A stretch of 64,000 nucleotides of DNA from an uncultured Candidatus Saccharibacteria bacterium (lineage in GTDB: Bacteria; Patescibacteriota; Doudnabacteria; UBA920): contig CAYYQK010000002.1 of the NCBI GenBank assembly GCA_964473815.1, positions 105,128-169,127 on the forward strand. The letters run 5' to 3'. Below, piece after piece: positions 1,083 to 36,425 of this stretch (positions are counted from its first letter, which is position 1; each line of letters starts with the position of its first letter). The position numbers were made by a program, and so were the translations under genes. Under the pieces are notes generated by a model that searched no databases, was not told the DNA's origin, and saw only the letters and a program-made list of their open reading frames with translations.

Positions 1083-1092
1083 TTTGCATAAC

Positions 1093-1122
1093 AAAAAACT
1101 CTCCTTTAGGGAGAGTTTTTTG
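1093..1122 (+). terminator. rho-independent terminator (aactctcc-ttta-gggagagtt + T-run)
   Basis: perfect 8-9 bp GC-containing stem followed by TTTTTT directly after stop of 474..1082. Confidence 0.7.
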
Positions 1123-1127
1123 ATGGA

Positions 1128-1152
1128 GCTCCATAGTACAGGACGTTAGAAC
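1128..1152. repeat. 25-bp direct repeat copy 1 (gctccatagtacaggacgttagaac)
   Basis: identical 25-mer recurs at 4611-4635; lies at the GC-content drop into the AT-rich region. Confidence 0.85.
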
Positions 1153-1175
1153 ATCTATTCTAGGAAGCAACTCAA

Positions 1176-1946
1176 TTACTTCCTTACAATTAGCAAAGAG
1201 TTAAAGTATGTTAATTCGTTATTTGTTGAAAATTTTAAAATTTCAGGCTTACATTGTACGTAAGTCTTAAGATCCATTTCAAACCATAACTTTACTGCTT
1301 CGCATAATTCATTGGGAGTATTAGCCCGAACGGTACATTCGATTTCTATTTCCTTAATATTACTATTGGATTTATCTAGAATATTAATCAGTTTGTCGTA
1401 CGAGTACGCGTAGTTTCTTTTAAAGGCCAAATCTTTAATACGTTTGTAGTCACCTTTGGGTTTATGAGTAACGAATAAAATCACTCCATCCTTATTAAGT
1501 AAAGAAAGCATCTTATCTATTGCATCGGTTTTATTCTGAAAATAGTAAAGTACATGACAAGCTAGGATCACATCATACTTTTGACTAGAGTTCCATTTCT
1601 CAAAGTCTTCGTTTACTATAGCCACATTCTTTTTATTGTAGGTATGTGCGTAATTAGAACTTTTTTCCAAGAGAGTTATATTTTTAACACTTGTTGGAAA
1701 TAGATGTGAACTAGTTAATGTATCTAACCCAGCCCCTATATTAAGAATTGATTTTGGTTGTATCTTATTAAGCAAGTTTAATATTTCACTCTCAACCTTT
1801 ACCTTTTCATTAGAGTGCTTAACAAATTGCTCAAATAATTTTTCAGGGAACTCAAATAGTATATTCATCTTATTTTGTAATAGAGAACTAAAGATAGTGA
1901 TTAAATCTGTCCTTTTTAGTTCTGATATAGTTGTGGTTATATTCAT
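1176..1946 (-). CDS. class I SAM-dependent methyltransferase (start may be internal Met at 1868, avoiding overlap with upstream gene)
   Basis: motif LNIGAGLDTL (SAM-binding motif I-like) and downstream acidic/hydrophobic motif II (YDVILACHVLYY). Confidence 0.55.
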   Translation of the reverse strand: MNITTTISELKRTDLITIFSSLLQNKMNILFEFPEKLFEQFVKHSNEKVKVESEILNLLNKIQPKSILNIGAGLDTLTSSHLFPTSVKNITLLEKSSNYAHTYNKKNVAIVNEDFEKWNSSQKYDVILACHVLYYFQNKTDAIDKMLSLLNKDGVILFVTHKPKGDYKRIKDLAFKRNYAYSYDKLINILDKSNSNIKEIEIECTVRANTPNELCEAVKLWFEMDLKTYVQCKPEILKFSTNNELTYFNSLLIVRK

Positions 1947-2460
1947 TGCTTTCGGTGATTAAATTAATTCTCTCAGTTACATTAATATCTAGGTTTTTTA
2001 TTGCAGTTACTTTGTCTGGATTATTTGTAAGTAGCTTAATGTTACATATTCCTAAGCTATTCAATATTGTCTTTACCTGTGAATACTCTCGAGCGTCTGG
2101 TAAATGCCCTAACATAACATTCGCATCATATGTGTCATACCCATTATCTTGTAATTGATAAGCTTTAACTTTTTCGTACAGGCCAATCCCTCTTCCCTCT
2201 TGTCTTAGATAAATGAATATTCCGTTTTGGGAGTTATTGATTAGTTTAAGAGCGAGTTCTTTTTGAGGACCGCAATCACATCGCAAACTCTTGAAGTTGT
2301 CGCCCGTAATACATTCACTATGAATTCTTACGATTACGGATTGTGTCTTATCTAGATTGGGGGTTTGAAGTACCAATGGTTCTTTACCATCTTTATCTTT
2401 CCAAACACTCATTACGAAATGACCGTATTTGGTCGGCAATATTGTAGATACAGATTCCAT
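1888..2460 (-). CDS. GTP cyclohydrolase II (RibA-like) stand-alone
   Basis: RIHSECITGDNFKSLRCDCGPQ zinc-binding Cys motif and RQEGRGIGL...KVKAYQLQDNGYDTYDAN signature typical of GCH II. Confidence 0.8.
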   Translation of the reverse strand: MESVSTILPTKYGHFVMSVWKDKDGKEPLVLQTPNLDKTQSVIVRIHSECITGDNFKSLRCDCGPQKELALKLINNSQNGIFIYLRQEGRGIGLYEKVKAYQLQDNGYDTYDANVMLGHLPDAREYSQVKTILNSLGICNIKLLTNNPDKVTAIKNLDINVTERINLITESNEYNHNYIRTKKDRFNHYL

Positions 2461-2461
2461 A

Positions 2462-3133
2462 TTATTTTTTCTTCCATTGCAGAATCATGTAGCCAGGATA
2501 GGTGTCTACGATTTTTTCTGCGGCTGGATCAAACTGCTCCTCAAATAACTCAAGGGTGAAGTGAGTCATCATAAAGGTCGAAAAGTATTCTTTAAGAGTA
2601 TGAGTCGGCTCTTTGAATGTAAGTAACCCATCAAAGCATACTGAATCTACTACTTCCTTTTTGAAGTAGTCTTTCCCTATTTTCTTCTTTTCGTACAGTT
2701 GTCTGATTGGATGCGCTACTAGAAAAGTAAAAGTCCCACCAGGTTTAAGTATCCGATAAACTTCCTTAAAAATTGGTTCTAATTCTTCGGCAGTCTGAAG
2801 CGCATATTTAGAGAATACGAAGTCGAAAGTACTGTCTTGATGAGGCAAAGAATCAAACACTCCGTATTTAAATTTAATACCCGAATATTTTTTTGATGCT
2901 ATATCAAGGAGTTCTTTTGAAGCATCTATACCATAAACAAGATCCGCACCTTGATCTTTGAAGAACTTACAGTCACTACCGTCACCACAACCAATATCTA
3001 ATACAACTCCTCCCTTAATAGTAGGAACTAGATTGCGATAAACTCTACGATTGTACTGCGCACCTTTTTCATAAACAGACTCAAAAGTGTCTGCGATCGA
3101 ATCGTATTGATGACTTAATTGATTTGAATTCAT
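2462..3133 (-). CDS. class I SAM-dependent methyltransferase (UbiE/COQ5-like fold)
   Basis: VLDIGCGDG motif I, acidic residue after beta2 (DAS), RILKPGG motif. Confidence 0.75.
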   Translation of the reverse strand: MNSNQLSHQYDSIADTFESVYEKGAQYNRRVYRNLVPTIKGGVVLDIGCGDGSDCKFFKDQGADLVYGIDASKELLDIASKKYSGIKFKYGVFDSLPHQDSTFDFVFSKYALQTAEELEPIFKEVYRILKPGGTFTFLVAHPIRQLYEKKKIGKDYFKKEVVDSVCFDGLLTFKEPTHTLKEYFSTFMMTHFTLELFEEQFDPAAEKIVDTYPGYMILQWKKK

Positions 3134-3144
3134 ATTGTAGCGAG

Positions 3145-3546
3145 TTAAAAATGTTTCTTAAAATCCAAAGAGGTATTCGCAATTTCATATGCCATATAAT
3201 CCATCTCTTTCCCTTCGTCGCAGATGAATTCATGTTTAACACCCTTTGGCACTATAACTACATCCCCTTGTTCTACGGGAATGTTGCCTTCTTCTGTTTG
3301 AAGAAAAGCCTTTCCTTTAATGATTACGCCGACAACGTGGGATATGTGGTGGTGCATTGGTTCGTTGTCATAACCATTAATGTGTACATAGTTAGCTGAT
3401 ACCTCGGTATTATGAGTGGAATCGAATAGGTCATTGATTCGTACAGGTGGAAGGGAAATAAATGCTGAGTTTCCATCTTTTATAAGTGATGATGAACTAG
3501 GTAAAACAGTACATTTATTTAGTTGTAGTAAATTAGCAATATTCAT
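3145..3546 (-). CDS. cupin-domain protein
   Basis: two-His/Glu cupin motifs HHHISHVVGVI...G...E...PKGVKHEF. Confidence 0.55.
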   Translation of the reverse strand: MNIANLLQLNKCTVLPSSSSLIKDGNSAFISLPPVRINDLFDSTHNTEVSANYVHINGYDNEPMHHHISHVVGVIIKGKAFLQTEEGNIPVEQGDVVIVPKGVKHEFICDEGKEMDYMAYEIANTSLDFKKHF

Positions 3547-3652
3547 AAGTTATAGAATTAATATTCTACGGACGCATCATACTATAAATTCTTGACTTAA
3601 TCATATTTTTGTGGTATTATTACAATATAGTGAACTTAAAGTGCAATAATAT

Positions 3653-4480
3653 ATGTTATTTTCTCCCAACGAATCAATAGAAGATGCCACAATTCGCCTT
3701 GTTTCTATGGGAAAAACGTCCCCTACTGATATCTTCGAAAGTCTTCAAAAAGAAGGCAATTCTATATCAAAAAGAGGGGTGTATAAAGCTATTCATTATT
3801 TGTTAGAGCACACAATTCTTGTAAAGAGTGGTAAAAAACTCTCGATCAGCCAAGAATGGGTAGATTCTGTAACTAGGGCATTAAAGAATAACTTTACTAT
3901 GCCTGTTCTAGCCGACGGAGAATCTGCTACATATAAGTACAAATCCTTAGTAAACCTTGATGCGTATTGGAAGCATCTAACTAAATCTCTCAAAGACCAG
4001 TACAGTACCTACCCTGTATTTTTGTACAGTCCTTATAATATTTGGCTACATTTAGCAGATAGAACTGAAAGTCAATTGGAGTATTATAGATCGTTTGAAA
4101 AGGAGCGAAGATATGGGTACCTCGTACTAGGCAATAGATCAGAATTAGATATGGAGTTTAAAAAAACACTGCAAAGTGAATTTTTGCAGATAGATACGTG
4201 GGACAAGCCTCCTTTCAAGGAAACAGAATACTACACTATAATTGATGACATTATCGTAACTACTAAGGTAGGACCGAAATTAACAAAGATTATAGCTAGT
4301 TTTTATAAAACCACTCCTACAATAGAAAGTAAGTCTAAGTTAAATCGTATTCTAGATATTACAGACATATCTAAGATTAAAATTGAAAGAAATAAAAAGA
4401 AAGCGAAATATCTTCGAAAAAGACTCTCTAAGAATTTCTACATACCAAAAGAGATTAAAGAACAGTTTGGTTTGTTCTAA
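3653..4480 (+). CDS. hypothetical protein
   Basis: 275-aa ORF inside AT-rich island, no recognisable motif. Confidence 0.4.
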   Translation: MLFSPNESIEDATIRLVSMGKTSPTDIFESLQKEGNSISKRGVYKAIHYLLEHTILVKSGKKLSISQEWVDSVTRALKNNFTMPVLADGESATYKYKSLVNLDAYWKHLTKSLKDQYSTYPVFLYSPYNIWLHLADRTESQLEYYRSFEKERRYGYLVLGNRSELDMEFKKTLQSEFLQIDTWDKPPFKETEYYTIIDDIIVTTKVGPKLTKIIASFYKTTPTIESKSKLNRILDITDISKIKIERNKKKAKYLRKRLSKNFYIPKEIKEQFGLF

Positions 4481-4610
4481 AATAAATAAAGCACCTGTAT
4501 AAGGTGTTTTATTATTGTTACCCCCTAATGAAATTCAATCGAATCAATTTGGAGTAGATTTTACAGCATCTTTGTGATTTTCCTAAGAAATTTGAAGGGT
4601 TCAAAATAGT

Positions 4611-4635
4611 GCTCCATAGTACAGGACGTTAGAAC
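4611..4635. repeat. 25-bp direct repeat copy 2 (gctccatagtacaggacgttagaac)
   Basis: identical to 1128-1152. Confidence 0.85.
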
Positions 4636-4658
4636 TAGTCTAGTAACTGTTTTATGAG

Positions 4659-5369
4659 TTACGGATTAGTGTCAGATTGAGCTACAAAATGTGGATTTTG
4701 AAACCTAATACTACACTCTGGGCAAATATAAGAAGTAACTGTTGTACTTATGTTTCTCGGGTATTTACAGGAAGGGCAAGGTAAATACTCATTAGAATGA
4801 GGTGTTTGTTTTATATGTTCTTCCCAAGGAAGTATAAAATCTTTTACATAATCTATATCACCTCTTTTGTATCTATGAAACATCGTCTTAAGTACGGCCT
4901 CGCATGCCATCTCTGTAATTCTCTTTTCGTCTTCTGTAAATGCTTCGTATTCGTCTAATGGTTCATATTGCTTAGTATTCTGTATATGTATACGATCTCG
5001 TAACTTTTTAACTCTTTCTAATAAGTCATAAAATCTTTCATCTGGAGCTGAGAAAATATTGTGTTTGCGAGAGTTATCTAAATACTTCTGAAACGCATTT
5101 ATTTCTTTCCCTCTAATCTCGTTAATAATATCTGTGGCTATATTTCTTACTCCTTCAATTGTGAATTTATTTACTCGGTAGTAAAAATCATGAAGCACTG
5201 CTTCAATAATTGAGCTTATAAATATAATTATAGGTTTACATAAATAACGTTTTTCGTTTGTTGAGGCTCTATCGTATTGACGGTAAAGATAGATAAGTAT
5301 TTTAGTATTGTGGTTAATGTTATCACCGACTTTGTATGAACCGATGAAATTAGATTTTACTGTAAACAT
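4659..5369 (-). CDS. hypothetical protein with C-terminal zinc-ribbon (CPSCKY...CPEC)
   Basis: 236-aa ORF; CxxC...CxxC at C-terminus; start abuts stop of upstream SRAP gene (operon). Confidence 0.45.
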   Translation of the reverse strand: MFTVKSNFIGSYKVGDNINHNTKILIYLYRQYDRASTNEKRYLCKPIIIFISSIIEAVLHDFYYRVNKFTIEGVRNIATDIINEIRGKEINAFQKYLDNSRKHNIFSAPDERFYDLLERVKKLRDRIHIQNTKQYEPLDEYEAFTEDEKRITEMACEAVLKTMFHRYKRGDIDYVKDFILPWEEHIKQTPHSNEYLPCPSCKYPRNISTTVTSYICPECSIRFQNPHFVAQSDTNP

Positions 5370-6038
5370 TTATTTGCTATTCTGGGCTGGTAACAATATG
5401 TCAGGGTGATCGTTACTAGGTTTATTTACTAAAGTAGAAATAGGGTAAGAAACCATCTCAGTTGCAGGATAAGGCTGTAATAAATTAATTGCTTCCTCTG
5501 CTTCTATGTCAGGATTCATCCAATCTTTCTCACTAGTAGGTGTTAATATCACGGGCATTCTGTTGTGAACATTCTCAACTACCTCGTTAGGTGTAGTAGT
5601 AATGATAACACTGTGGGGTACTTTGTTTCCTTGAGCGTCTGTTTCGTATTGCCATAAACCTGCAAAGGCAAAAGGTTCCCTATCCTTAAGTTCAAATCTG
5701 TAAGGAACCTTGAGTTTCGAATCTGGTTGTTTTTGCCATTCATAGAATCCATCAGCAAGAATTAGACAACGTTGTTCAGCAATCATCTTTTTCCAAGTTG
5801 GTTTTACCATGCTGTCATTACGGGCATTTATAAAGAACATCTTACCAGTCTTGTCGTAAAATGGATGAATCCCCCATTGCGTATAAACTATCTCGTTCGG
5901 ATCTGTATTCAAGATGGTAGGTATAGGCTGGGAAGGTCGGACATTATATCTGGGATCAACTGGGCTTTCGTTATAGCCTGCGTTGAATCTTTGAGATAAG
6001 TCTCTAAATGGATGAATTACTGAAAATGCTCCGCACAT
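5370..6038 (-). CDS. SOS-response associated peptidase (SRAP/YedK/HMCES family)
   Basis: N-terminal MCGAF (catalytic Cys2), length and conserved W/H pattern typical of SRAP. Confidence 0.7.
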   Translation of the reverse strand: MCGAFSVIHPFRDLSQRFNAGYNESPVDPRYNVRPSQPIPTILNTDPNEIVYTQWGIHPFYDKTGKMFFINARNDSMVKPTWKKMIAEQRCLILADGFYEWQKQPDSKLKVPYRFELKDREPFAFAGLWQYETDAQGNKVPHSVIITTTPNEVVENVHNRMPVILTPTSEKDWMNPDIEAEEAINLLQPYPATEMVSYPISTLVNKPSNDHPDILLPAQNSK

Positions 6039-6402
6039 GATGAATTTGTTAAGTTATGTAAAGTTTTGTGTGGATAACTGATTGATAAAATATAAAATAT
6101 GGCTTATTTGTGAGGAGAGACCATCTTTTATACCTGCCAAATCACTCTGATATACTGAAGTTAGTAGAACTTTACAACCTGTATTCCACTTTTTGACCAT
6201 CTTTTGGAGTACCGGGCTAAGGGCATCCCTTTTAGGGACTTGTTCTACGCCCGACTATCAATTATTTCTGAGTGGAATCGGAAATGGTTGATTGGCCCGG
6301 AACTCTAGCAGGTGGTTTTATTTTACCACTTGTTGGGAAAAACCAATGGGGCGCCCCTGTAGCAGTCGACTGATTGGATTATTAATCCGAAAGGAAGCAA
6401 TA

Positions 6403-6558
6403 ATGCCTATCCCCGTTGGAATGATCTGTCGCCCGTACATTACGGTAGACGGTCAGAAGATTTGGGCTAAGGATTACGGTAAAAAAGCCTTTTGTTTCTT
6501 CCCTTCTCTTAAGAAGGGGAAAAAGAAAAAGCCTGAAGCCGTAAAACTTCAAGCCTAA
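6403..6558 (+). CDS. small basic ORF (51 aa, Lys-rich C-terminus) with SD and downstream terminator
   Basis: AGGAAG 6 nt upstream of ATG at 6403; followed by hairpin+T-run at ~6575-6615; no homology recognised. Confidence 0.2.
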   Translation: MPIPVGMICRPYITVDGQKIWAKDYGKKAFCFFPSLKKGKKKKPEAVKLQA

Positions 6559-6574
6559 CTTCACCTTATAAAAC

Positions 6575-6615
6575 ACTCGTTTGGGTACCCATTCGGGTGT
6601 TTTATGTTTTAGGAG
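6575..6615 (+). terminator. rho-independent terminator (aaacactcg...cgggtgttt + T-run)
   Basis: 9-bp stem with G-U, loop containing gggtaccc palindrome, followed by TTTTATGTTTT. Confidence 0.5.
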
Positions 6616-6765
6616 TATAACCCCCAAATCACAGTCTCTAGATTCTGGGTTTAGGGATTATTGAACAATACTATCTTATATAAGAAATATAGTCAATTCA
6701 TATCATTTGTACATGAAATGTATATCTATTATACCATATTCTTATCCACAACCTTTAACACCCTT

Positions 6766-7857
6766 TTAGGTACCTGATTTAAGACGATTGTCTTCTTTGC
6801 ATAACATTTGGCAATTTTCTGATGTAGTTTTACCACCCTCATGCCATGGTTTGATATGATCTGCTTCCATCTCTTCTATCTCAAAATGTTTCTTGCATTT
6901 TGGACAAACTCCTTTTTGCCTTTCGTATGCTTCACGTTTCATCTTATCGTTGAAAGCTCTAATAGAAAGAAGTCTTTCTTTTCTGGTTAACACATAAGGA
7001 TATATACCAGACTTCTTTGTTACATCTTCATCCTGCATAAGTTTAGATACTTCTTCTTCTAATTCTTTAGGATTCAATGTTGTCTCTTTAAATTCATTGT
7101 ACAATTCACCCCAGTTCACTCCAGCCATTTCTTTACGGTAGTTGGTGAAAGTGCTTCTAGACCAAGATATAACTTTCTGGAAATATTCCCAAAGTTCTTT
7201 AGCATCTTTGTCATGTTGATGGGATGCCATGTATCCAGCTATGTCGCCATTATTAATCCAACTCAATGCTGTTTCTAAATAGTCTTGTCTTATAGGAGAT
7301 CCATGTAACAAAGAACCGCCATCATTAGCTAACAGATATGCTGCACAATTTGATTTACTAAACTTTAATTTTGCATCTGATAACCAAGGTCCTGTATAGA
7401 CAGCATTACGTAATTCTTGTTCAGTTAATCGTTCTCCTGCAATATTGATAGTTCTGAACCAGTTCAATCTTTCTATGTCTGTTCCTTCGCAAAAGTAAAC
7501 CATTAATTCATAGTTCAGAATTTGCTCTTGCTCCTCCTTGGTAAGATTATGGAAATATCGATCATTTAAAGAAAAGTCTCCTGTCACATACTGACCAATA
7601 CTTATAGTTCGCTGTTGTCCGTCCAATACTTCGAAGTTTCCATCTTCTCGAACCATCCAATACATAACATTCAATGGAAAGTCGTGAGTTATAGTGTTGA
7701 TTACTGCATCTCGTTGCTGGTCTTTATACACAAACTCTCTTTGATATTTTGGACGAACATCTAGTTTACCAGCATATGCAACTACACCTTCTTCTGCACT
7801 ATCTTTGTAACCTTCAGTAATTTCTCGTATAGAAATTTTATTTAGTTCAATTTTCAT
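6766..7857 (-). CDS. DUF262 (ParB-like nuclease, DGQQR motif) fused to C-terminal HNH endonuclease; GmrSD-related putative restriction endonuclease
   Basis: VLDGQQRTISI motif of DUF262; C-terminal CPKC...ADHIKPWHEGG...N...LC HNH motif; start overlaps stop of upstream MTase (ATGA). Confidence 0.7.
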   Translation of the reverse strand: MKIELNKISIREITEGYKDSAEEGVVAYAGKLDVRPKYQREFVYKDQQRDAVINTITHDFPLNVMYWMVREDGNFEVLDGQQRTISIGQYVTGDFSLNDRYFHNLTKEEQEQILNYELMVYFCEGTDIERLNWFRTINIAGERLTEQELRNAVYTGPWLSDAKLKFSKSNCAAYLLANDGGSLLHGSPIRQDYLETALSWINNGDIAGYMASHQHDKDAKELWEYFQKVISWSRSTFTNYRKEMAGVNWGELYNEFKETTLNPKELEEEVSKLMQDEDVTKKSGIYPYVLTRKERLLSIRAFNDKMKREAYERQKGVCPKCKKHFEIEEMEADHIKPWHEGGKTTSENCQMLCKEDNRLKSGT

Positions 7858-8963
7858 TAGGATTCCTTATTTCTAATTAAAAGTCTAGCATACACAGCTT
7901 TAAAGCCTTCTGGTGTTTTTAGTACACTCCTTGCGTTCAAATCATTATATTTAGGGTGATCATCTATTGTATATTTTTTCTTACGCATCCCTGATGTATT
8001 TTGTCTATCGGTAATACCAAGTATTTCAAATTGTTCAGGATTGTACTTATCTAAGAAAGTAATAGGTACGCCCATTGTATCTTTGTAATCTTTAGGAATA
8101 TCAGAAGTTTTACTTACTTCAATTGCATCATAGTTGTCATAGTGTGGATACTCTTCCGGAGAATAATTTTTGTATAAGACTAAATCCGTATGACGTTCTG
8201 TGTAATCTAGATTTGTAAACCAACGAACACCTTTCACTCGAATAAATTTATTACCCTCACTATCCACTCTTGTCCCGGCTGCATTGAGAGGGTAATCATC
8301 AGGAACTCTGAACTCTCTATCACCACTATGAATACTTTGCCCTAACCACATTTTGTTATGTTGGACTAGAGGAAATACTTCTTTGTAAGTTATAGCATTG
8401 ATGTTTCCAAGTACTAGGAACTTTTTATTGTGTTCGACTAGCTGTGCTATAAATTCTCGGAATAAAGAGAATGGTGGATTCGTAACAACAATATCTGATT
8501 CCTTTAACAGATTAATACATTCGTCGCTACGAAAATCGCCGCTACCTTTTAATGGTGTTGCTGAGTTTTTGTCATGCTGAAGTAGAAACTTAACATCATC
8601 TAAATTAATAGCACCATCCCCGTCTGTATCAGGTACAGCATTGATCTCTAACTTAAATGGTTCTAATCCTGTTGGCTTCAGTCCCTCCATCTCAAATAAG
8701 GGTAATTGTCTTCCCACAATTGGAGACTTCATGTAGCTAGTGCTGATAAGTTTCTTCAAACCTAAAGCATTAAAGTTTGCAGCAAAGTATTTAAAAAAAT
8801 TACTTTCAAAAGGGTCATCACAGTTACAATACACCACCTTATCCCTAAATTGTTCTTTATAATGTTTAAGCTCTTTTTCAATATCAACTAGTTGAGTATA
8901 AAACTCATCTTTTTTAGCTTGTCCTGCTTGGTTTAAATTTGTGTTTAAGGGAGTATTAGGCAT
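7857..8963 (-). CDS. N6-adenine DNA methyltransferase
   Basis: catalytic motif IV NPPF (IVVTNPPFS), N-terminal DEFYTQ motif; SAM-binding fold. Confidence 0.75.
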   Translation of the reverse strand: MPNTPLNTNLNQAGQAKKDEFYTQLVDIEKELKHYKEQFRDKVVYCNCDDPFESNFFKYFAANFNALGLKKLISTSYMKSPIVGRQLPLFEMEGLKPTGLEPFKLEINAVPDTDGDGAINLDDVKFLLQHDKNSATPLKGSGDFRSDECINLLKESDIVVTNPPFSLFREFIAQLVEHNKKFLVLGNINAITYKEVFPLVQHNKMWLGQSIHSGDREFRVPDDYPLNAAGTRVDSEGNKFIRVKGVRWFTNLDYTERHTDLVLYKNYSPEEYPHYDNYDAIEVSKTSDIPKDYKDTMGVPITFLDKYNPEQFEILGITDRQNTSGMRKKKYTIDDHPKYNDLNARSVLKTPEGFKAVYARLLIRNKES

Positions 8964-9267
8964 TAAAGTTGACTTAACTAAAGTAATTATAGACTTATCC
9001 GAGGAAAAAGAGAATATGAGTGTGTATAATGAAAGGTATACTATCGTACACCTATGAAACTGATAATATTTTTCTTCGTAAAACTACCTCGACATTCCCC
9101 TTGTCCTGACCATTGGCTAATGCTACCCCCCACTGCTCAAAATTACGGAACCATTTGTAAAAAGTGCCTTTGGAAGACACTACCAACAGGAGGAAATATG
9201 AGACCAGTAAAGTTATTTAACAGGTATTGGAATCATTAAAAAATTGGTATAATACCAACACAACACA

Positions 9268-9672
9268 TTGCCTAACCCCTACTTTGTAGGATATGGCATT
9301 AAATCCGATCAAGATATAGAACCTCTCGTCAGGGTCCTTGATCGGTCGTATCTGGAAACGGATATGTTGATCCGAAAGGGTCAAACTTGGCGGGGGGCTT
9401 TTTGTTCCCCAGTCATACAATTAAAACCGATCAAGGAAATGTCTAAATTGAATACTAAAAAAGTAATAGGTTTCCTATTACGACCTTTGTCATTATTTAT
9501 AGTATTGGTGCTACTGTACTGGGGGTTTACTTCTTCTGGAGATGTTAAGGAAATAGCGTTGAACTTCATTATTATTGCTATGTCCATAATGGTTGTCGGA
9601 ATTATATTTAATGATGTTTGGGATAGTGATGAAGTGCCTAATTGGATTCGTAAGTATTTTAGAAAGAGATAA
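9268..9672 (+). CDS. hypothetical small membrane protein
   Basis: 134-aa ORF with TM helices (LLRPLSLFIVLVLLYWGF; IIIAMSIMVVGIIF). Confidence 0.3.
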   Translation: MPNPYFVGYGIKSDQDIEPLVRVLDRSYLETDMLIRKGQTWRGAFCSPVIQLKPIKEMSKLNTKKVIGFLLRPLSLFIVLVLLYWGFTSSGDVKEIALNFIIIAMSIMVVGIIFNDVWDSDEVPNWIRKYFRKR

Positions 9673-10235
9673 TGTCAGCAGAATTAATAACATTTTTCCA
9701 TAACTCCGACGAATTACGTTCGGAGTTTTCTCATAAGGATTCAAATAGACCATGTTTCTATTGGTTTGCTGACAGATTCCATAGTCATACTGGTTATCTA
9801 AAAAAAGATAAGTATTTCTATATGTTTGTAAAAGACCCAATTAAAGAATCAATCACATTAATACCTCGTAATAATGAGGACCATAGTTTTCATGCTTTGT
9901 ACAACGACTTCCTTTTCTTTAAACACAATACAGATTATCAGGAATATTTAGAGCCTCCTATTTTAATGTCGTATGATAGAATCGTTCCTGATTTGATTGC
10001 AGAATACTCAGAAGAAACAAATGAGTATAAGATTGTGAAACCAGATATCTTTAAACATATGCGATTCAAGTTATATGACGATTCATATAAACATCAATGG
10101 GCTAAAGGTCCAAAATTTACAGATATTCAAGTATTGAATAAATCGCTCCCTTTACTAGCAAATTCATTGCCGCTAACTGATCCTAAAATCAGAAATGGAA
10201 AGTATATTTTCAAAAACTGGTTAGGTGCATATTAG
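9672..10235 (+). CDS. hypothetical protein
   Basis: 187-aa ORF in island, start overlaps preceding ORF. Confidence 0.4.
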   Translation: MSAELITFFHNSDELRSEFSHKDSNRPCFYWFADRFHSHTGYLKKDKYFYMFVKDPIKESITLIPRNNEDHSFHALYNDFLFFKHNTDYQEYLEPPILMSYDRIVPDLIAEYSEETNEYKIVKPDIFKHMRFKLYDDSYKHQWAKGPKFTDIQVLNKSLPLLANSLPLTDPKIRNGKYIFKNWLGAY

Positions 10236-10371
10236 TGCATATTTTGAAAAACTAAGATTACGTCACTTTAGGTCGTAATTAAATACCTTTGATAATTAGG
10301 TTAAACGCTATGTATTTCGCGCAAAACTAGCTCAAATTCATGCGTTTATATCGGAAACCAAGAGTTATATA

Positions 10372-10400
10372 TTGACGCACAGAAAACTCTAAAGTACAAT
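10372..10400 (+). promoter_or_regulatory. sigma70-like promoter (TTGACG-17-TACAAT)
   Basis: near-consensus -35/-10 with 17-bp spacer upstream of 10511 ORF. Confidence 0.4.
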
Positions 10401-10510
10401 GCTTTTACTGGATAAAGAAAATTAGAGAAGAAACCTCTCGTTTCGGCAACTAATGCCCCAGATAAAAAACTCGTGCTAACCATGGCACCATAATTAAGTT
10501 TTTTATCGGG

Positions 10511-10882
10511 GTGTTGTTTTTTACCAACACACTCGATGTTGGTTTTATTATGCCTAGAATAAAGTTTGGTTATGATTCAAATTACATTAAAGTGTATGGA
10601 CGAGCTCAATCGCATTTCAATTTAAGACCCATAGAAGGTTTACTTTTGGGTTTGGTAGAAAGTATGTCTTCTCAAAAAGGTTATTGCTATGCAACCAAGG
10701 AAACTTTGGCAGGAATATTGAATGTAAATACAAGCACTGTCTATTACACAATGAACAAGTTAATTAGAAAAGGTTTATTGATTTCCAAACCAGTAGGATT
10801 CAGTAAAGCGCAATTAATGTGTACAGATGAATGGTATGACTTTATAGGAGAACTTAGACAAAGTTTTTCGCCAGATGATTAA
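10511..10882 (+). CDS. winged-helix DNA-binding protein (MarR/PadR-like), possible island regulator; start may be 10550
   Basis: motif ETLAGILNVNTSTVYYTMNKLIRKGLL resembles wHTH recognition helix. Confidence 0.4.
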   Translation: MLFFTNTLDVGFIMPRIKFGYDSNYIKVYGRAQSHFNLRPIEGLLLGLVESMSSQKGYCYATKETLAGILNVNTSTVYYTMNKLIRKGLLISKPVGFSKAQLMCTDEWYDFIGELRQSFSPDD

Positions 10883-11407
10883 TGTCAATTTGTGGTTCTA
10901 GATCCATTTAGCCTCCGAATTTCAGAATGGCCCTATTAAATTCAGAGTCCTAAGACTATGAAATTAAAAGTAAAAATACTCTTAAATTCAGAGCTAATAT
11001 ATATAATCATATTTATAAATCATATTTAAAGATTAATACCCATATTTTGTAAAATATACAAAATATGGGAAACAGCACAAGATAATGAATCAAATAAATG
11101 AAAAACAAATACAAGAATTTATAGATCTATATAAGTTAAAGTATGGAGTAACTATAAGTCGTGAAGAAGCTATCATTCAATCAAGAAAATTATTAGATCT
11201 TGTTAAGCTTGTTTATAAACCAATAAAAAAAGATTCTGATAAAGAGTAGTTGTCCCCCGTGCCAAGAGGAATCGTATCAGTGATAATGTAATTAACAACT
11301 ATCACGTGCCTAGCTAACAATTTGTTTTGATAATTCCTTTATTGGAATAGTCTTTATCTGAAACATTGGGTTCGGATAGTTGTTGAGACTATTCCTTTTT
11401 TGTATTT

Positions 11408-13081
11408 ATGAAAGTATCTAATCCAAAACTTAGATATGTGGTTTATGCACGTAAATCCACTGATTCCGAAGATAGACAGGTTCAATCAGTAGACGACCAA
11501 TTAAGAGAGCTAGAACCAATTATTACCCAAAACAGCCTAAATGTAGTTAGGTATTTTGAGGAATCTAAGTCTGCCAAAAGACGTGGAAGACCAATGTTTA
11601 ATGAAATGATGGATATGATTCAAAATGGTAAAGCTGATGGTATTATTTGTTGGAAACCAAATCGGTTATCCCGTAATGCATATGACGGAGGACTGATACA
11701 AGGAATGCTTACTGATAATATTATTCAATCCATAGTTACTCCATCTAAAGAGCATTTGCCCCAAGATAACGTTATGTTATTAACTGTTGAATTAGGCATG
11801 GCTAATCAGTTTAGTTTGGATTTGGGGCGTGATGTTAGCCGTGGAATGCAGAGTAAAGCAAATAAAGGGTGGTTACCTGAGAAAGCACCACTAGGATACC
11901 TTAACGATCCGCTAGGTTTGAAAGGTGAAAAGAAAATATTTATTGATGAGGAAAGATTCCCATTAGTTAGAAAAATGTGGGACTTGATGTTAACAGGAAA
12001 CTATACTGTTAAGCAATTAAGAGATCTTTCCCATAATGAATGGGGTTTGAAGACAAGGGCTAGTAGGAATCTATCTAGCAAGATGCTAAGTCTGAGCGGA
12101 GCGTATAGAATATTCACAAATACATTTTATTATGGCGAGTATTCATATAAAGGAGAGGTAATTCAAGGTAAACATCAACCCATGGTAACTAAGGAAGAAT
12201 TTGATCGAGTCCAAAAGTTACTTGGTAGAGCTGGTAAACCGAGACCTAAATATAAACGATTGCCATTTAATGGTGTGATTAGATGTGGAGAATGTGGATC
12301 CATGATTACTTGTGATGAGAAAGTGAAACGTTCAAAACAACCAAATGTACAGCCAAAGCATTATTTATATCACAGATGTACAGGTAAGAGTCATGATTCT
12401 TGTTTTCAAGAACCAATCACCTATCAGGATCTAGCTAATCAAATTACTGGTTATCTTGGTAGTATTACTATATCTCAAGAACTATTAGAATGGTCATTAA
12501 AAATATTGCGTCAAAATAATCAAATAGAAGACACTAATCGCTCCATAATAATAAAAAACCTAAAAAAAGATTTGGAGTCCGTTTCAGAAAAGAATAAGAA
12601 TTTGATTGATCTCTTTCTTTCAGGAAGTAATAAAGATCGAAGTATGCTCACTGAAGAAGAATATATCAATCAGAAGAATACTTTTACAGCTGAGAAATCT
12701 AGAATTGAAGGTGAATTAAGAAAAATTGAAACTAATGACGGTGGTTTACTTGAGTTAACTGAGAAGACATTTGAGTTTGCTACTTATGCTAGATCTCATT
12801 TCCAAAATGGCGACTATGAAACACAAACTCGTATATTACTGAATCTTGGGCAGAAAATAGTCTTAAAAGATAAAAAGCTAGTTATAGAATTACAGAAACC
12901 TTACTCAATTATAAAAAATGGACTAGAAAAAATGAGTTCAATTATGATATCGGTCGAACAAGAAGAACGCCTTATACCTAAAAGGAAAAACACTCCTTTA
13001 GAGAGTGTTTATTCCATGTGGAGCGGCCAAGGGGAATCGAACCCCTATCCCTTCCTTGGCAAGGAAGAGTTCTACCATTGA
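11408..13081 (+). CDS. large serine recombinase (resolvase/invertase catalytic domain + recombinase domain + zinc ribbon)
   Basis: N-terminal YVVYARKSTDSEDRQ...SVDDQ catalytic-Ser motif; CGECGS...HRCTG zinc ribbon; coiled-coil C-terminus; last ~63 nt overlap tRNA-Gly on opposite strand. Confidence 0.85.
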   Translation: MKVSNPKLRYVVYARKSTDSEDRQVQSVDDQLRELEPIITQNSLNVVRYFEESKSAKRRGRPMFNEMMDMIQNGKADGIICWKPNRLSRNAYDGGLIQGMLTDNIIQSIVTPSKEHLPQDNVMLLTVELGMANQFSLDLGRDVSRGMQSKANKGWLPEKAPLGYLNDPLGLKGEKKIFIDEERFPLVRKMWDLMLTGNYTVKQLRDLSHNEWGLKTRASRNLSSKMLSLSGAYRIFTNTFYYGEYSYKGEVIQGKHQPMVTKEEFDRVQKLLGRAGKPRPKYKRLPFNGVIRCGECGSMITCDEKVKRSKQPNVQPKHYLYHRCTGKSHDSCFQEPITYQDLANQITGYLGSITISQELLEWSLKILRQNNQIEDTNRSIIIKNLKKDLESVSEKNKNLIDLFLSGSNKDRSMLTEEEYINQKNTFTAEKSRIEGELRKIETNDGGLLELTEKTFEFATYARSHFQNGDYETQTRILLNLGQKIVLKDKKLVIELQKPYSIIKNGLEKMSSIMISVEQEERLIPKRKNTPLESVYSMWSGQGESNPYPFLGKEEFYH

Positions 13082-13092
13082 ACCATGGCCGC
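13019..13092 (-). tRNA. tRNA-Gly (GCC)
   Basis: cloverleaf read by eye: acceptor GCGGCCA/TGGCCGC, anticodon loop TTGCCAA, T-loop GGTTCGATTCC, encoded CCA. Confidence 0.85.
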
Positions 13093-13122
13093 ACGCTATT
13101 ATAAATATAAGTAAATTTTTGC

Positions 13123-13197
13123 TGGTGCCGCGAGTCAGAATTGAACTGACGACACGACGCTCTTCAGGCGTCTGCTCTACCACTGAGCTACCGCGGC
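13123..13197 (-). tRNA. tRNA-Phe (GAA)
   Basis: acceptor GCCGCGG, D-arm GCTCAGTGGTAGAGC, anticodon loop CTGAAGA, T-loop TTCAATT, CCA. Confidence 0.85.
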
Positions 13198-13220
13198 ATA
13201 AATGTGGTTTTAATTTTTGT

Positions 13221-13297
13221 TGGTGGGCGATAAAGGATTCGAACCTTTGACATCTTCGGTGTAAACGAAGCGCTCTGACCAGCTGAGCTAATCGCCC
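13221..13297 (-). tRNA. tRNA-Val (TAC)
   Basis: acceptor GGGCGAT/ATCGCCC, anticodon loop TTTACAC, T-loop GGTTCGAATCC, CCA. Confidence 0.85.
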
Positions 13298-13332
13298 TAA
13301 TGTTCGCTTGTGCGAAAACTTTGTAAAATTTT

Positions 13333-13419
13333 TGGTGCCCGAGAGAGGACTTGAACCTCCACGGGATTAATCCCACTACCACCTCAAGGTAGCGCGTCTG
13401 CCAGTTCCGCCACCCGGGC
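13333..13419 (-). tRNA. tRNA-Leu (GAG), long variable arm
   Basis: acceptor GCCCGGG, anticodon loop TTGAGGT, long extra arm, T-loop GGTTCAAGTCC, CCA. Confidence 0.85.
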
Positions 13420-33709: not shown

Positions 33710-35911
33710 ATGGTTGATAATAGAAGATATTGTAGTGTTGACCTGGAATTTACGGGTTTTGACCCGGCAATCGACCAAATCTTGGAAATAGGATTTGCGT
33801 TTTTTGAATTGGGGCCAGATGGTTTTGTTGTGACAGAGGAATGGTCGCAAGTTTTTAAGCCAAGCATAGAAGTGCACCCAAAGATTTTGGGTTTAACTGG
33901 TATCACACAAGAAGAGTTAGATAACGCGCCAGAGTTTAACGAGCACCGTGAAGTGTTGCAAGAGAAATTAGGTGATGCAATTATCGTGGGTCATAACCCA
34001 ACCATGGACGTGAAGTTTTTAGAAAGTTACGGAATTAAGTTGTCTGGTCAGATTGTAGACACGCTTGAATTAGTGCAATTTATTTTACCAACCCATCATA
34101 GTTACAACTTGGAAAACTTGGTGCATTACTTTGGCGTGAAGCATCATAAAGCGCATCGTGCGTTGGGCGATGCTCTTTCTACGATTCAGGTTTTGGAAAA
34201 TCTAATTCGTGTTTATCAAAAGTTTCCAGAAAAGTTGCAAAGTGAATTGCAAGAAGTAATTAATCGTAGTGAGTTTTTGTGGCAGAAATTAGTAGATGCA
34301 AAACTACCGGAGAAACAATTAGAACAAAACGATTCCTTAGCTCATAACAATGCACGTCAAAAATTACAGCCATTTAATATTAATAACGAGTTAATTATTA
34401 TTGATGACGATGGCAATGATCATGAAGCACGAGTTGCACTAGGTTTGAAGAAAAGCAATACACCAAGTGTGTTAGCAGTAAGCGATAGCATAACTGCAAT
34501 GCGTTTATGGCGTGCTGGTTTTGCTCACGGAATATTTTTAAGCGAAGATACTTTTTCGGAAGTAGCGTTTAAAAAGTTTTTAGAACGAGCACAAACTCAA
34601 GAAGAGTTACGATTCTGTTTAAAGATAATTGTTTGGCTTCATACCAATTGGCAAACAGAAGTTGTGTTTGATTTAAACATTTCTTTCTTTGGCGGACAGT
34701 TTAGACAATTTATTGTTGGCGGGAAAGCACGAACTACAAATGAGAATGTAATCGTTTTAGATTATGTTACTTTGCAATCACTTGCACTCACCGGAAAGTT
34801 TAAAGATCGCAAACTAGTCATCTGCGACATTTTAAATTTTGAAAAATATATAAGTTCGGGTTTTGGAACAAGACTGGCATGGGGCCAAGTGTTGTATGCT
34901 TTGCGTTTAGTTTACAATCCTGAAACAGAATTTGGTATTTTAGAATTAAAAGATAAAGTCATCGATGCATTGGTTGCAACAGATTTATTTTTTGGTTTAG
35001 TGTTCATGCTAACGCATCAATCTTTACCTAACAATCAATATGCTAATTTACATGACTTAGCTAATAATCATTCCCAGGTTTATTCTCGATTGTCACAGGC
35101 TGCTACAAACCTTAAAGATAAGCTTGTCGACATAGCTGATCATACCAAGTCGGGTGAGCTAGGGCGAGTGGTGAATTTCTTAACGGATTTCTTCGAGGAG
35201 AACCCCGGACATGTAAAGTGGATTACTATCGATGAATATAACTCAACCTTTCATGACCAGCCTATAGATATATCAGAAAGCGTGACAGATATAACCTCTC
35301 ACTTCGCTCAACTACAATTTACTGAGAGCATCACTGACAAGGCTTTACTTTCTTATCTTGTTGATCGTCTCGGGTTACATAATGAAGAATCCGAGATTAC
35401 CAATAAAACATTACCAAAGAACCTGCATATTGAGGTTGTTAATTCAGAGCCATCAGATGAAGAGTTGTTTAATTTAAGTGCAAACTCCGCGCTGCCATTA
35501 GTAATGGTGATGCAGCAACCATCAAATGTAAAAGAATTTTATAACGCGCATTACTCTGAAATAAAGAAAACCGCTAGTCTTTTTGCACAAGGATATTCCG
35601 GAGGCGGTAATAAGATGTTCCGCAACTTCTCTATTAGAGAAAATAGTATTCTTTTAGTCACTGCAGACTTCATGGCAAAGCAAAACTATTTAATTACCGC
35701 AAAAAATTTGGTATTTATAGGTTTGCCCAACATAGAAACTCAACATCCTTACACTGCAGCATTGCTTCAGCACTGGAAAAAACAACACCCACACTTAGAA
35801 GAAGTTATGCAGTTACAAAAAATGGTTGGTGCACTAAAAAAATTAAAATTAGATGGCCAAACTAACGTACAAATTTATACAAACGACAAAAATTTTTCCT
35901 TTTGGGGATAA
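33710..35911 (+). CDS. DEDDh 3'-5' exonuclease (DnaQ-like) domain protein with ~550-aa uncharacterised C-terminal region
   Basis: Exo I SVDLEFTG, Exo II IIVGHNPTMDVKFL, Exo III HKAHRALGDA; no Walker A seen in C-terminal part; start set after recA terminator. Confidence 0.65.
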   Translation: MVDNRRYCSVDLEFTGFDPAIDQILEIGFAFFELGPDGFVVTEEWSQVFKPSIEVHPKILGLTGITQEELDNAPEFNEHREVLQEKLGDAIIVGHNPTMDVKFLESYGIKLSGQIVDTLELVQFILPTHHSYNLENLVHYFGVKHHKAHRALGDALSTIQVLENLIRVYQKFPEKLQSELQEVINRSEFLWQKLVDAKLPEKQLEQNDSLAHNNARQKLQPFNINNELIIIDDDGNDHEARVALGLKKSNTPSVLAVSDSITAMRLWRAGFAHGIFLSEDTFSEVAFKKFLERAQTQEELRFCLKIIVWLHTNWQTEVVFDLNISFFGGQFRQFIVGGKARTTNENVIVLDYVTLQSLALTGKFKDRKLVICDILNFEKYISSGFGTRLAWGQVLYALRLVYNPETEFGILELKDKVIDALVATDLFFGLVFMLTHQSLPNNQYANLHDLANNHSQVYSRLSQAATNLKDKLVDIADHTKSGELGRVVNFLTDFFEENPGHVKWITIDEYNSTFHDQPIDISESVTDITSHFAQLQFTESITDKALLSYLVDRLGLHNEESEITNKTLPKNLHIEVVNSEPSDEELFNLSANSALPLVMVMQQPSNVKEFYNAHYSEIKKTASLFAQGYSGGGNKMFRNFSIRENSILLVTADFMAKQNYLITAKNLVFIGLPNIETQHPYTAALLQHWKKQHPHLEEVMQLQKMVGALKKLKLDGQTNVQIYTNDKNFSFWG

Positions 35912-35917
35912 CACCCG

Positions 35918-35946
35918 TTGACAAAGTGAAAAAATTATGATAAGAT
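35918..35946 (+). promoter_or_regulatory. sigma70-like promoter TTGACA-17-TAAGAT
   Basis: consensus -35 and good -10 with 17-bp spacer at the start of an ORF-free 560-bp region. Confidence 0.55.
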
Positions 35947-35952
35947 ACTTTT

Positions 35953-36425
35953 GTAACGTAAATTGCTCCTTGAAATAAAAATATAAAAAGCAAACTGAAC
36001 TAAGGAAATCTGCGCTTGAGGATCTAGAGCTTCATTTGAGCGTAGGCTTCCTTCTTACTCTTCGTCATAGTCTGTCCTAATTCAGACTGTTTGAAAAACA
36101 AAAATAAAATGTAGGTTCTCCTCTCCTTATAAGAGGCAAAAATTTTTCTAAAACAAAAACAAAACTAAAAGAACAAAAAGTTTAGGTCTAGCGACCACAA
36201 GAGGAGTTTGAAGTGCAGTTTGCAATTAATTAGGGTGTAGACATTCTTCTACCATCGTGGGTGGAAGTAAGGCTTAATCGCATAAGTATTGTCTAGTGCA
36301 GTAGGTCTAGGTTCTCAAAGGTTGGGAACCTGCAGCTACTGCGCTGAGCAGTCAAGCAATTGAGCTCAGCGCCACAACCGGCTCGTTCATTTATAATTTA
36401 GGGGCCCGTGTTGGGGCGCTTTTTA
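35953..36425 (+). ncRNA. candidate non-coding RNA of unknown class (ORF-free, promoter-driven, multiple hairpins, ends at ggggcgcTTTTT)
   Basis: no ORF of 60 aa or more on either strand across ~560 bp in an otherwise gene-dense region; strong promoter; 9-bp perfect hairpin gcgctgagc...gctcagcgc; terminator-like 3' end. Confidence 0.3.

Follow-up and report, generated by a model that had tools for sequence, protein, structure and literature searches.

A probable composite genomic island at the 3' end of a tRNA-Gly gene in a Patescibacteria genome and the large serine recombinase clade associated with it

The stretch of DNA analysed here, a 64-kb window on a 205-kb, low-coverage metagenome contig from a member of the Patescibacteria (Candidate Phyla Radiation, CPR), contains a region that adjoins a tRNA-Gly(GCC) gene and ends in the gene of a large serine recombinase (LSR). 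We read positions 1130-13024 of the window (11,895 bp) as a composite genomic island that arose by site-specific insertion at the 3' end of tRNA-Gly(GCC), and give this reading a probability of about 85%. The island is best read as two parts, namely module A at 1130-4612 (3,483 bp), which has no recombinase, and the LSR element, module B, at 4613-13024 (8,412 bp). A first-pass annotation made from the sequence letters had proposed a single integrative element at the 3' end of a tRNA gene. Empty sites in relatives, an attL/attR pair of attachment (att) sites and the base composition support the insertion at tRNA-Gly, and the single element is replaced here by two modules. Islands at tRNA genes are textbook knowledge and are almost always attributed to tyrosine integrases. 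The island itself is of this ordinary kind; the LSR clade that drives it is unusual and was not found described in the literature searched.

Ends of the island and the empty site

Related loci were collected by scanning species-representative genomes with IF-2, the product of a neighbouring gene, which gave 48 loci; in the syntenic ones IF-2 identity is 64-88%, and their titles name Patescibacteria, Doudnabacteria and 'Saccharibacteria' metagenome-assembled genomes. The conserved order in these relatives is IF2-RbfA-DHH-tLeu-tVal-tPhe-tGly(gcc), followed after 1-3 kb by tCys-tLeu(taa), and the source contig keeps this order apart from the 11.9 kb. Here tCys and tLeu(taa) stand 2.4 kb to the left of the gene at 474-1082, and the distance from tCys to tGly is 14.9 kb compared with 3.1 kb in L049, the closest relative, where gene 474-1082 likewise has a homologue. 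None of the 48 related loci has an LSR or restriction-modification cargo at this locus, and an unfiltered tblastn search of the LSR against the relatives matched residues 523-557 only, which are translated hairpin and tRNA.

The first-pass annotation had suggested looking for an empty site next to tRNA-Gly in related genomes, and such sites were found. In the 28 related loci that were aligned, the 3' end of tRNA-Gly(gcc) (...GCTCCA) is followed immediately by a terminator hairpin consisting of an A-run, stem, loop, stem and T-run (aacaaaaaac-stem-loop-stem-ttttttga), which in several loci is almost identical to window positions 1090-1129. The sequence at 1090-1129 is near-identical to the tRNA-adjacent sequence of relatives, for example aacaaaaaactctcctttagggagagttttttgtTGGAGC in L031 (90-97% identity across L031, L023 and L009), and its hairpin folds with -19.5 kcal/mol (z = -4.5). 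Since this hairpin abuts the tRNA in the relatives, the left end of the island in the window is the native terminator and tRNA end, displaced by 11.9 kb.

A search for an attL/attR pair, also suggested at first pass, found the core TGGAGC at 1124-1129 and at 13019-13024, with the displaced native terminator beside the left copy and an LSR-encoded look-alike beside the right one (Table 1). The latter is a terminator-like hairpin at 12988-13010 that lies inside the LSR ORF and was scored as a terminator on the tRNA strand (fold z = -2.1); the 28-nt hairpins to the left of the two TGGAGC copies (1094-1121 and 12986-13013) are 86% alike. In the nomenclature used here the native terminator is the B arm, the acceptor and T arm of the tRNA form the B' arm, the LSR-encoded hairpin is the P arm, and the sequence that opens the island is the P' arm. 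The 25-bp repeat at 1128-1152, which contains the P' arm, recurs exactly at 4611-4635 within the island. The tRNA-Gly(gcc) gene (13019-13092, minus strand) is identical in sequence to the copies in relatives; the shared repeat includes just 6 nt of the tRNA, and the tRNA is restored. It is indeed the first of four consecutive tRNA genes, as proposed, being followed by Phe, Val and Leu, all on the minus strand, and their operon has an 11/12 promoter match at 13478-13450. Calls of tRNA genes were made with ARAGORN and Rfam, domains were assigned with Pfam and NCBIfam, phage families with PHROGs and defence genes with PADLOC.

Table 1. Features of the island and its attachment sites (positions in the window unless another locus is named)
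Feature	Position	Strand	Remarks
attL, host half	1090-1129		Native tRNA-Gly operon terminator hairpin (B arm), displaced, plus TGGAGC (the final 6 nt of the tRNA, which reads GCTCCA on its own strand)
attL, element half (P' arm copy 1)	1130-1152	+	TCCATAGTACAGGACGTTAGAAC; with GC at 1128-1129 forms the 25-bp repeat
Class-I S-adenosylmethionine (SAM) methyltransferase	1176-1946	-	Module A; Pfam/NCBIfam
GTP cyclohydrolase II/RibA	1888-2460	-	Module A; above NCBIfam cut-off
Class-I SAM methyltransferase	2462-3133	-	Module A
Cupin	3145-3546	-	Module A
275-aa protein, no known family	3653-4480	+	Module A
Internal junction	4519-4635	+	93-bp 'X' stretch, AGTGC, P' arm copy 2 (4613-4635)
236-aa protein	4659-5369	-	Module B; C-terminal zinc-ribbon-like CxxC pair
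SRAP/YedK-type protein	5370-6038	-	Module B; Pfam SRAP E = 7e-59; phrog_1599 match in this block (4659-6038)
DUF262(GmrSD_N)-HNH endonuclease	6766-7857	-	PADLOC REase_II PDLC03418, E = 1e-142, full length
EcoRI-family N6-adenine methylase	7857-8963	-	PADLOC MTase_II, E = 3e-124, full length
LOOT RNA (Rfam RF03000)	9269-9383	+	At the start of the rightward genes of module B
Membrane-like ORF, 77 aa	9439-9672	+
187-aa ORF	9672-10235	+
HTH_36 protein	10550-10882	+	Pfam; weak PHROG matches to replication initiators
Conserved 54-aa protein	11085-11249	+	Upstream of the LSR
Large serine recombinase, 557 aa	11408-13081	+	Last 35 residues from P arm, core and tRNA-Gly antisense
attR	12986-13045		P arm, core TGGAGC (13019-13024), B' arm (tRNA acceptor and T arm, TCGAAC ending at +18)
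Target tRNA operon Leu(gag)-Val(tac)-Phe(gaa)-Gly(gcc)	13019-13419	-	Intact; ARAGORN, Rfam
attB junction (reconstructed)			GAGAGTTTTTTGATGGAGC joined to GGCCAAGGGGAATCG
attP junction of 8.4-kb circle (reconstructed)			TTATTCCATGTGGAGC joined to TCCATAGTACAGGACGTTAGAACTAGTC
attP junction of 11.9-kb circle (reconstructed)			Left side as in the 8.4-kb circle; right side ...GTTAGAACATCTATT
LOOT RNA copies in other loci	L008 7055-7173; L057 5171-5291		Also L076, L081, L082, L097, L098, L105, L110, L112, L113, L125 and others

A free circular relative

An LSR homologue that is 53% identical to that of the window, P0021, was found on a 6,960-bp contig in six samples. The four P0021 contigs that were retrieved are the same sequence rotated to different starting points, without mismatches and with ends that overlap by 30 nt, and therefore represent a 6,930-bp circle. 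Its LSR ORF reads through an attP site of the form AAAAACACCCCTTTAGAGAGTGTCTTTTCAAGA TGGAGC TCATTGGTTATGGATGTTAGAAC. When attP was reconstructed from the window by joining 12961-13024 to 4613-4657, it aligned without gaps to the attP of the circle, with agreement at 67/109 positions that is densest in the P hairpin and the P' arm; the P arm of the circle (contig L004) has the same sequence and spacing as that of the window, and P' arm copy 1 matches the P' side of the circle, with TAGAAC ending at +23 from the core. The LSR tail predicted for the window is WS-SIVQDVRTSLVTVL from an 8,412-bp circle and SIVQDVRTSILGS from an 11,895-bp circle, the real circle has WS-SLVMDVRTVVAQLV, and other homologues share a D-V/I-R-T tail. 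A profile search with the P' arm returned no copies beyond its seeds, so that the attL of more distant elements was not located.

Base composition and codon usage

The AT-rich island of about 12 kb that had been noticed from the letters is borne out by measurement. GC content is 34.3% in 1128-13018 and 41.2% in the rest of the window (500-bp windows, 24 in the island and 102 outside; Mann-Whitney p = 1.9e-11), and the lowest-GC 11.9-kb segment of the entire window starts at 1101. Codon usage is likewise distinct and differs significantly from the rest of the window: the mean GC content of third codon positions (GC3) is 0.295 in the 13 island ORFs compared with 0.369 in 45 ORFs outside (p = 1.2e-5), and the distance in relative synonymous codon usage between island and rest is 4.85, with maxima of 3.04 for contiguous 13-gene blocks elsewhere and 3.52 in 2000 label permutations. 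Other spots of low GC or GC3 in the window lie at 34001-36000, 42046-42927 and 54829-55338 (GC 0.356-0.362; GC3 0.289 and 0.235).

Two modules and their junction

The reading of the island as two modules follows from two observations, namely that module A occurs alone in the relative L015 and that a P' arm opens both parts. In L015 the five genes of 1176-4480 directly adjoin tRNA-Gly (68-91% protein identity; 78% DNA identity over 3366 nt), the same 25-mer, with a single mismatch, forms the distal boundary of the module, and no sequence from 4613-13024 is present. Recurrence of the same genes at the same place in relatives, which at first pass had been named as a finding that would speak against an acquired island, is thus observed for the left 3.5 kb only, and in L015. 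The 93-bp X stretch at the internal junction (4519-4611) is 77-79% identical to two copies in L015 (18802-18891 and 19448-19538), was otherwise not found, and has no Rfam match. Each of the L015 copies lies just upstream of the start of a cassette gene, and the copy in the window faces the terminator of the gene for the 275-aa protein.

It is improbable, in our estimate, that the whole 11.9 kb is one element that entered in a single event and that the P' copy inside it represents an internal repeat or the scar of a co-integrate. The outer ends do form the cleanest attL/attR pair, the left one having a true B arm and the right one a P arm, GC and GC3 are similarly low in both halves (GC3 0.308 and 0.287), and a co-integrate of two circles joined at attP and then integrated would give exactly the order seen. 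Against this, module A adjoins tRNA-Gly without module B in L015, the related LSR elements span 6.9-10.6 kb and none has module A genes, and the exact 25-bp copy of the P' arm lies precisely at the border between A and B. We therefore keep the two-module reading, in which module A would be the older or a separately acquired part.

A further alternative is that the region is ancestral, fast-evolving DNA that was lost from relatives, and that the LSR is domesticated or unrelated and abuts the tRNA by chance. Module A in L015 has diverged like core genes (proteins 68-91% identical compared with 70-82% for the core), and the neighbouring gene at 474-1082 also has a low GC3 (0.266), as such an origin would predict. 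However, the native terminator and tRNA end are displaced intact to 1090-1129, composition and codon usage are outliers, the closer relatives L049, L009 and L010 have neither module, members of the LSR clade lie at tRNA ends in unrelated contexts, and a free circle exists. With these observations in hand an ancestral origin is hardly credible, and an acquired island of two modules is the reading carried forward.

Proposed mechanism of integration

In the mechanism that we propose, attP of the circular element would span the 3' end of the LSR ORF, with the P-arm hairpin, the core TGGAGC and the P' arm TCCATAGTACAGGACGTTAGAAC, and the LSR would pair it with an attB made up of the native operon terminator, TGGAGC and the acceptor and T arm of the tRNA. 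Exchange would take place within TGGAGC, most likely at GC. Integration would rebuild the tRNA exactly and move the native terminator 11.9 kb away, the terminator-like P-arm hairpin would take over its role for the tRNA operon, and the tail of the LSR would change from WS-SIVQDVRT to WS-GQGESNP, which is tRNA antisense. We infer that this LSR recombines attP with attB through a 2-bp staggered cut, and the element may still be mobile. The internal junction keeps only the GC of TGGAGC, and the crossover hence points to GC, a placement that is unproven and relies on sequence identity.

The T-loop sequence (TCGAAC antisense) would act as the motif for the zinc-ribbon domain in B', its P' copy TAGAAC lying 5 bp further out. 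The motif T(C/A)GAAC ends at +18 in B' (window, L140 and L008) and at +23 in P' (window, L004 and L008), the B' form being the antisense of the universal T-loop GTTCGA; in the other two subfamilies for which both forms are available the positions in B' and P' are +15/+20 and +18/+23. In A118-type Listeria integrases the zinc-ribbon motif occupies half-site positions 16-24 in attP and lies 5 bp nearer the centre in attB (PMC3783163). The 5-bp offset supports a reaction of the canonical LSR type, and suggests a reason for tRNAs being the targets.

Several observations weigh against the proposed island and its mechanism. The 5-bp shift is clean in the right-hand half-sites only, and on the left the offset is ambiguous (3 or 5 bp). 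A crossover at GC would use a dinucleotide that is its own reverse complement; characterised LSR sites are not known to have a self-complementary central dinucleotide. At the internal junction the left arm (4519-4612) lacks a terminator-like fold and resembles neither the B arm (native terminator) nor the P arm (LSR hairpin); as ways in which A and B may have been joined, sequential insertion, a co-integrate and repeat recombination all fit. Look-ups by exact protein turned up neither a circular contig nor one with an empty site from the same species, the matches having the same arrangement or being too short. Finally, the source contig is a low-coverage metagenome assembly, although three contigs carry this arrangement of the island, and its left junction recurs on L138, an independent contig from a different sample.

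The recombinase clade

The LSR has the Resolvase domain PF00239 (63.8 bits, cut-off 23.3; residues 11-154) and the Recombinase domain PF07508 (36.0 bits, cut-off 21.1; residues 182-272), and the zinc ribbon PF13408 scored 23.0 bits, just under its cut-off of 25.3, with a precomputed PF13408 match in most homologues. Residues Y13, R15 and K16, the catalytic serine S17 and the putative zinc-ribbon cysteines C293, C296, C324 and C332 are invariant in 40 homologues. The protein matches the phrog_95 integrase family, and the closest solved structures are SPbeta SprA (E = 1e-11) and the A118 integrase. Among 8,000 candidates scored, 3,549 were homologues at E <= 1e-20; the named ones are from Patescibacteria, and the best is 61% identical.

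As had been claimed at first pass, the end of the 557-aa LSR is encoded antisense to tRNA-Gly(GCC), the overlap being 63 nt (20 codons and the stop). Among the best 120 homologues the C-terminal end is WSG in 45 and LSG in 32, and others continue with ESNP; WSG corresponds to TGG AGC GGn, the 3' end of tRNA-Gly read antisense, and ...ESNP... to the antisense of the tRNA T arm. The closest homologue, L140 (61%), as well as L141 and L008, are each integrated antisense into tRNA-Gly. In L140 and many relatives the acceptor stem reads GGCTAA, which gives a stop at WSG, compared with GGCCAA here (13025-13030); the ORF in the window therefore runs 18 codons further, which explains its 557 aa in comparison with the typical homologue length of about 535 aa. 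When metagenomes were scanned with a profile of 40 sequences, 80 loci with 32-55% identity were obtained (the family has more than 536 metagenome loci). Where the LSR 3' end was complete, a tRNA or transfer-messenger RNA (tmRNA) lay antisense at the end of the ORF in 50/67 loci, with Asn (14), Gly (12), His (10), Ser (6), Gln (3), tmRNA (2) and Arg, Leu and Val (1 each) as targets, and six further loci of the 67 have T-arm-like tails. The overlap of ORF and tRNA is a clade-wide signature and no accident of this locus.

A subgroup of the clade, whose LSR terminates within the 3' end of a tmRNA gene instead of a tRNA, has the tail WRWGESNPRA: in L098 the tmRNA lies at 9321-9707 and the LSR stop at 9386, and the same tail occurs in L099, L104, L106 and L115. 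In L141 (7670-10578) and L142 a related element at tRNA-Gly, with an LSR that is 55% identical, has a tyrosine integrase gene directly upstream of the LSR gene and also encodes a Toprim protein, DUF5659 and an N6_N4 methylase; the L142 copy has a helicase (ResIII) beside the methylase. DUF5659 and a Toprim protein are additions found in some relatives of the clade.

Another rival reading takes the island for a small prophage, or a satellite of a phage, with a serine integrase. Besides the phrog_95 match of the LSR, the SRAP, HNH and replication-initiator-like matches are of kinds common in phages. Yet matches to capsid, terminase, portal and tail proteins were absent in the ten island proteins scanned against PHROGs, a set that left out the module A enzymes, and among 2.9 million viral contigs the LSR family is nearly missing, with 2 loci at 35% identity, compared with its abundance in metagenomes. 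Identity to the LSRs of catalogued phages and plasmids is at most 28%, the value reached by the best LSR in the phage database. Given the lack of virion genes, the near-absence from viral contigs and the low identity to phage and plasmid LSRs, the element is not called a prophage, and a phage origin of this kind is very unlikely. A plasmid reading was set aside along with it, structural genes being missing from the ten proteins and matches in curated collections being only distant. We regard module B, which its domains and the geometry of its sites mark as an LSR element, as a small integrative, possibly plasmid-like, element.

A serine recombinase clade with thousands of homologues appears to occupy the niche of tRNA islands in the ultra-small CPR bacteria. 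Since the att sites can be read from the ends of the ORFs, the clade offers many natural LSR/att pairs at conserved tRNA sequences, which are of practical interest for integrase-based genome engineering and for the genetics of Patescibacteria. Literature searches found no description of LSR elements at tRNA genes or of LSRs in Patescibacteria or the CPR; such an absence is no proof.

Comparison with known elements

With A118/LI, TP901-1 Int, SPbeta SprA, phiC31 and Bxb1 the LSR shares the order Resolvase-Recombinase followed by a probable zinc ribbon, short att sites with little identity between attP and attB, a position of the integrase beside the att site, and the 5-bp shift of the outer motif. 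The known targets of well-studied LSRs are protein-coding genes or other non-tRNA sites; in contrast to the five named, the target here is the 3' end of a tRNA or tmRNA. Further differences from phage LSRs are that attP is contained in the 3' end of the integrase ORF, which makes the C-terminal tail differ between the free and the integrated form, and that the P arm doubles as a replacement terminator.

Filamentous phiRSM phages of Ralstonia use a small serine recombinase to integrate at the 3' end of a tRNA-Ser gene. They are similar in having a serine recombinase and a tRNA 3' end as attB, but the phiRSM enzyme is small and resolvase-like, without the Recombinase and zinc-ribbon domains, and both host and type of element are different. 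In archaeal integrases of the SSV1 type attP lies inside the integrase ORF and the target is a tRNA, and the gene of the tyrosine recombinase is split and inactivated on integration. The location of the recombination site within integrase coding sequence and the tRNA gene as target are alike, whereas here only a dispensable-looking C-terminal tail is exchanged.

Classical tRNA islands (P4-like elements, integrative and conjugative elements, prophages) share insertion at the tRNA 3' end with restoration of the tRNA, an integrase beside the tRNA, deviant GC content and defence cargo. The present island differs from them in the superfamily of its recombinase, in the lack of a 15-50-nt direct repeat of the tRNA, and in an integrase gene that is convergent with the tRNA and overlaps it.

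The tycheposons of Prochlorococcus are small cargo elements that integrate next to tRNAs, push older material outward and leave degenerate modules behind; their defining features are tyrosine recombinases of one specific clade and direct repeats of partial tRNAs, and an LSR is present in 27/937 of them (bioRxiv 10.1101/2020.12.28.424599). Insertion next to a tRNA and outward accretion are common to both. The island differs from tycheposons in its LSR, in a shared core of 6 nt and in having no primase/helicase module in this copy (the relative L141 has Toprim). Membership among the tycheposons was rejected, the recombinase being an LSR and the repeat having just 6 nt of tRNA. An integron was also considered and rejected: the island in the window has no tyrosine recombinase, and the repeats are attL-like LSR half-sites; only the cassette arrays of relatives look similar.

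Cargo genes

The cargo named at first pass, namely a DNA methyltransferase, a DUF262-HNH nuclease, an SRAP protein, GTP cyclohydrolase II with two methyltransferases, and a winged helix-turn-helix protein, was recovered in full (Table 1). Small membrane ORFs had also been listed and are present; the ORF at 9268-9672, however, needs correction, as its first 115 nt are the LOOT RNA described below. The genes of the endonuclease and the methylase overlap by 1 nt, and 6766-8963 is a predicted Type II restriction-modification pair.

In module A, the cluster of RibA, two methyltransferases, cupin and the 275-aa protein may make a small modified product that is pyrimidine- or pterin-like. No specific pathway could be assigned to the module, whose methyltransferases and cupin belong to generic families. 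Matches of the module to MADS 'mad2' span the methyltransferase fold only.

The conserved 54-aa protein encoded upstream of the LSR had 24 tblastn matches at 35-46% identity, and the 14 listed are the rotations of the one circle (L004-L007) and 10 other LSR loci. It is a candidate directionality factor or regulator. Directly ahead of the start codon of the LSR there are direct repeats (11322-11344 and 11380-11402) and inverted repeats (11326-11353 and 11386-11413), which are possible operator sites.

LOOT RNA

The LOOT RNA of module B scored 76.1 bits over model positions 1-121 (E = 4e-13), the gathering threshold of the family being 46.4. With a model built from three copies, matches were obtained in 19/89 sources, and ten of the weaker matches were confirmed by Rfam at 69-90 bits. 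LOOT RNA is present in 17 other loci with LSR homologues (18 with L058, a duplicate of L057); in the 89 sources searched there was none in host-only loci and no second copy in the window. In 14/18 cases an ORF starts 4-63 nt downstream of the RNA on the same strand. The genes downstream are not homologous between elements, so that no conserved regulated gene emerges. A description of the LOOT motif was not found in the literature; with the LSR elements this orphan RNA gains a genomic home.

The tRNA-Gly locus in relatives

One to three short modules without a recombinase stand at tRNA-Gly(gcc) in L012 (10219-11203), L015 (15415-20524), L022 (14421-18451) and L031 (14216-14849). These array modules end distally in a P' arm preceded by an arm of the native terminator type, and an intact attB-like site adjoins the tRNA. 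Their cargo comprises a SAM methyltransferase, a P-loop/zeta-like kinase, the RibA module and ORFs of 156 and 341 aa, which on reading by eye appear glyoxalase-like and APH-like, respectively. This pattern is not obviously produced by canonical LSR integration followed by decay. The idea that attR regenerates a usable attB because P mimics B, which would have explained serial insertion, was weakened by the position of the P-type motifs 3-5 bp further out.

Taking the arrays together with the clade, we tentatively propose, as a possibility on which we would not yet rely, that a Patescibacteria-specific LSR clade has specialised on tRNA and tmRNA genes, with the T-loop as the zinc-ribbon motif of attB, attP in its own 3' coding end and LOOT RNA as a shared component, and that in at least one lineage it feeds arrays of recombinase-less modules at tRNA-Gly, a gene-capture hotspot comparable to tycheposon islands and integron arrays. 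Such a hotspot of gene flux would deliver restriction-modification and small-molecule-modifying enzymes to genomes that are thought to be poor in mobile elements.

Almost every relative has a content of its own between tRNA-Gly and tRNA-Cys, and this suggests that older accretions took place at the same hotspot. Just outside the island, the gene at 474-1082, whose very low GC3 was given above, has a patchy distribution, with homologues only in L049 and L024, in the same place; 53-412 was noted along with it.

Matches to Group I introns were found at or within the tRNA cluster in L015 (14265-14489), L008 (18922-19150), L020, L023, L030 and L043. In several relatives tRNA-Phe was not called, and in L015, L020 and L023 a gap of about 1.1 kb separates tRNA-Val from tRNA-Gly. 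These observations are consistent with an intron-containing tRNA-Phe gene.

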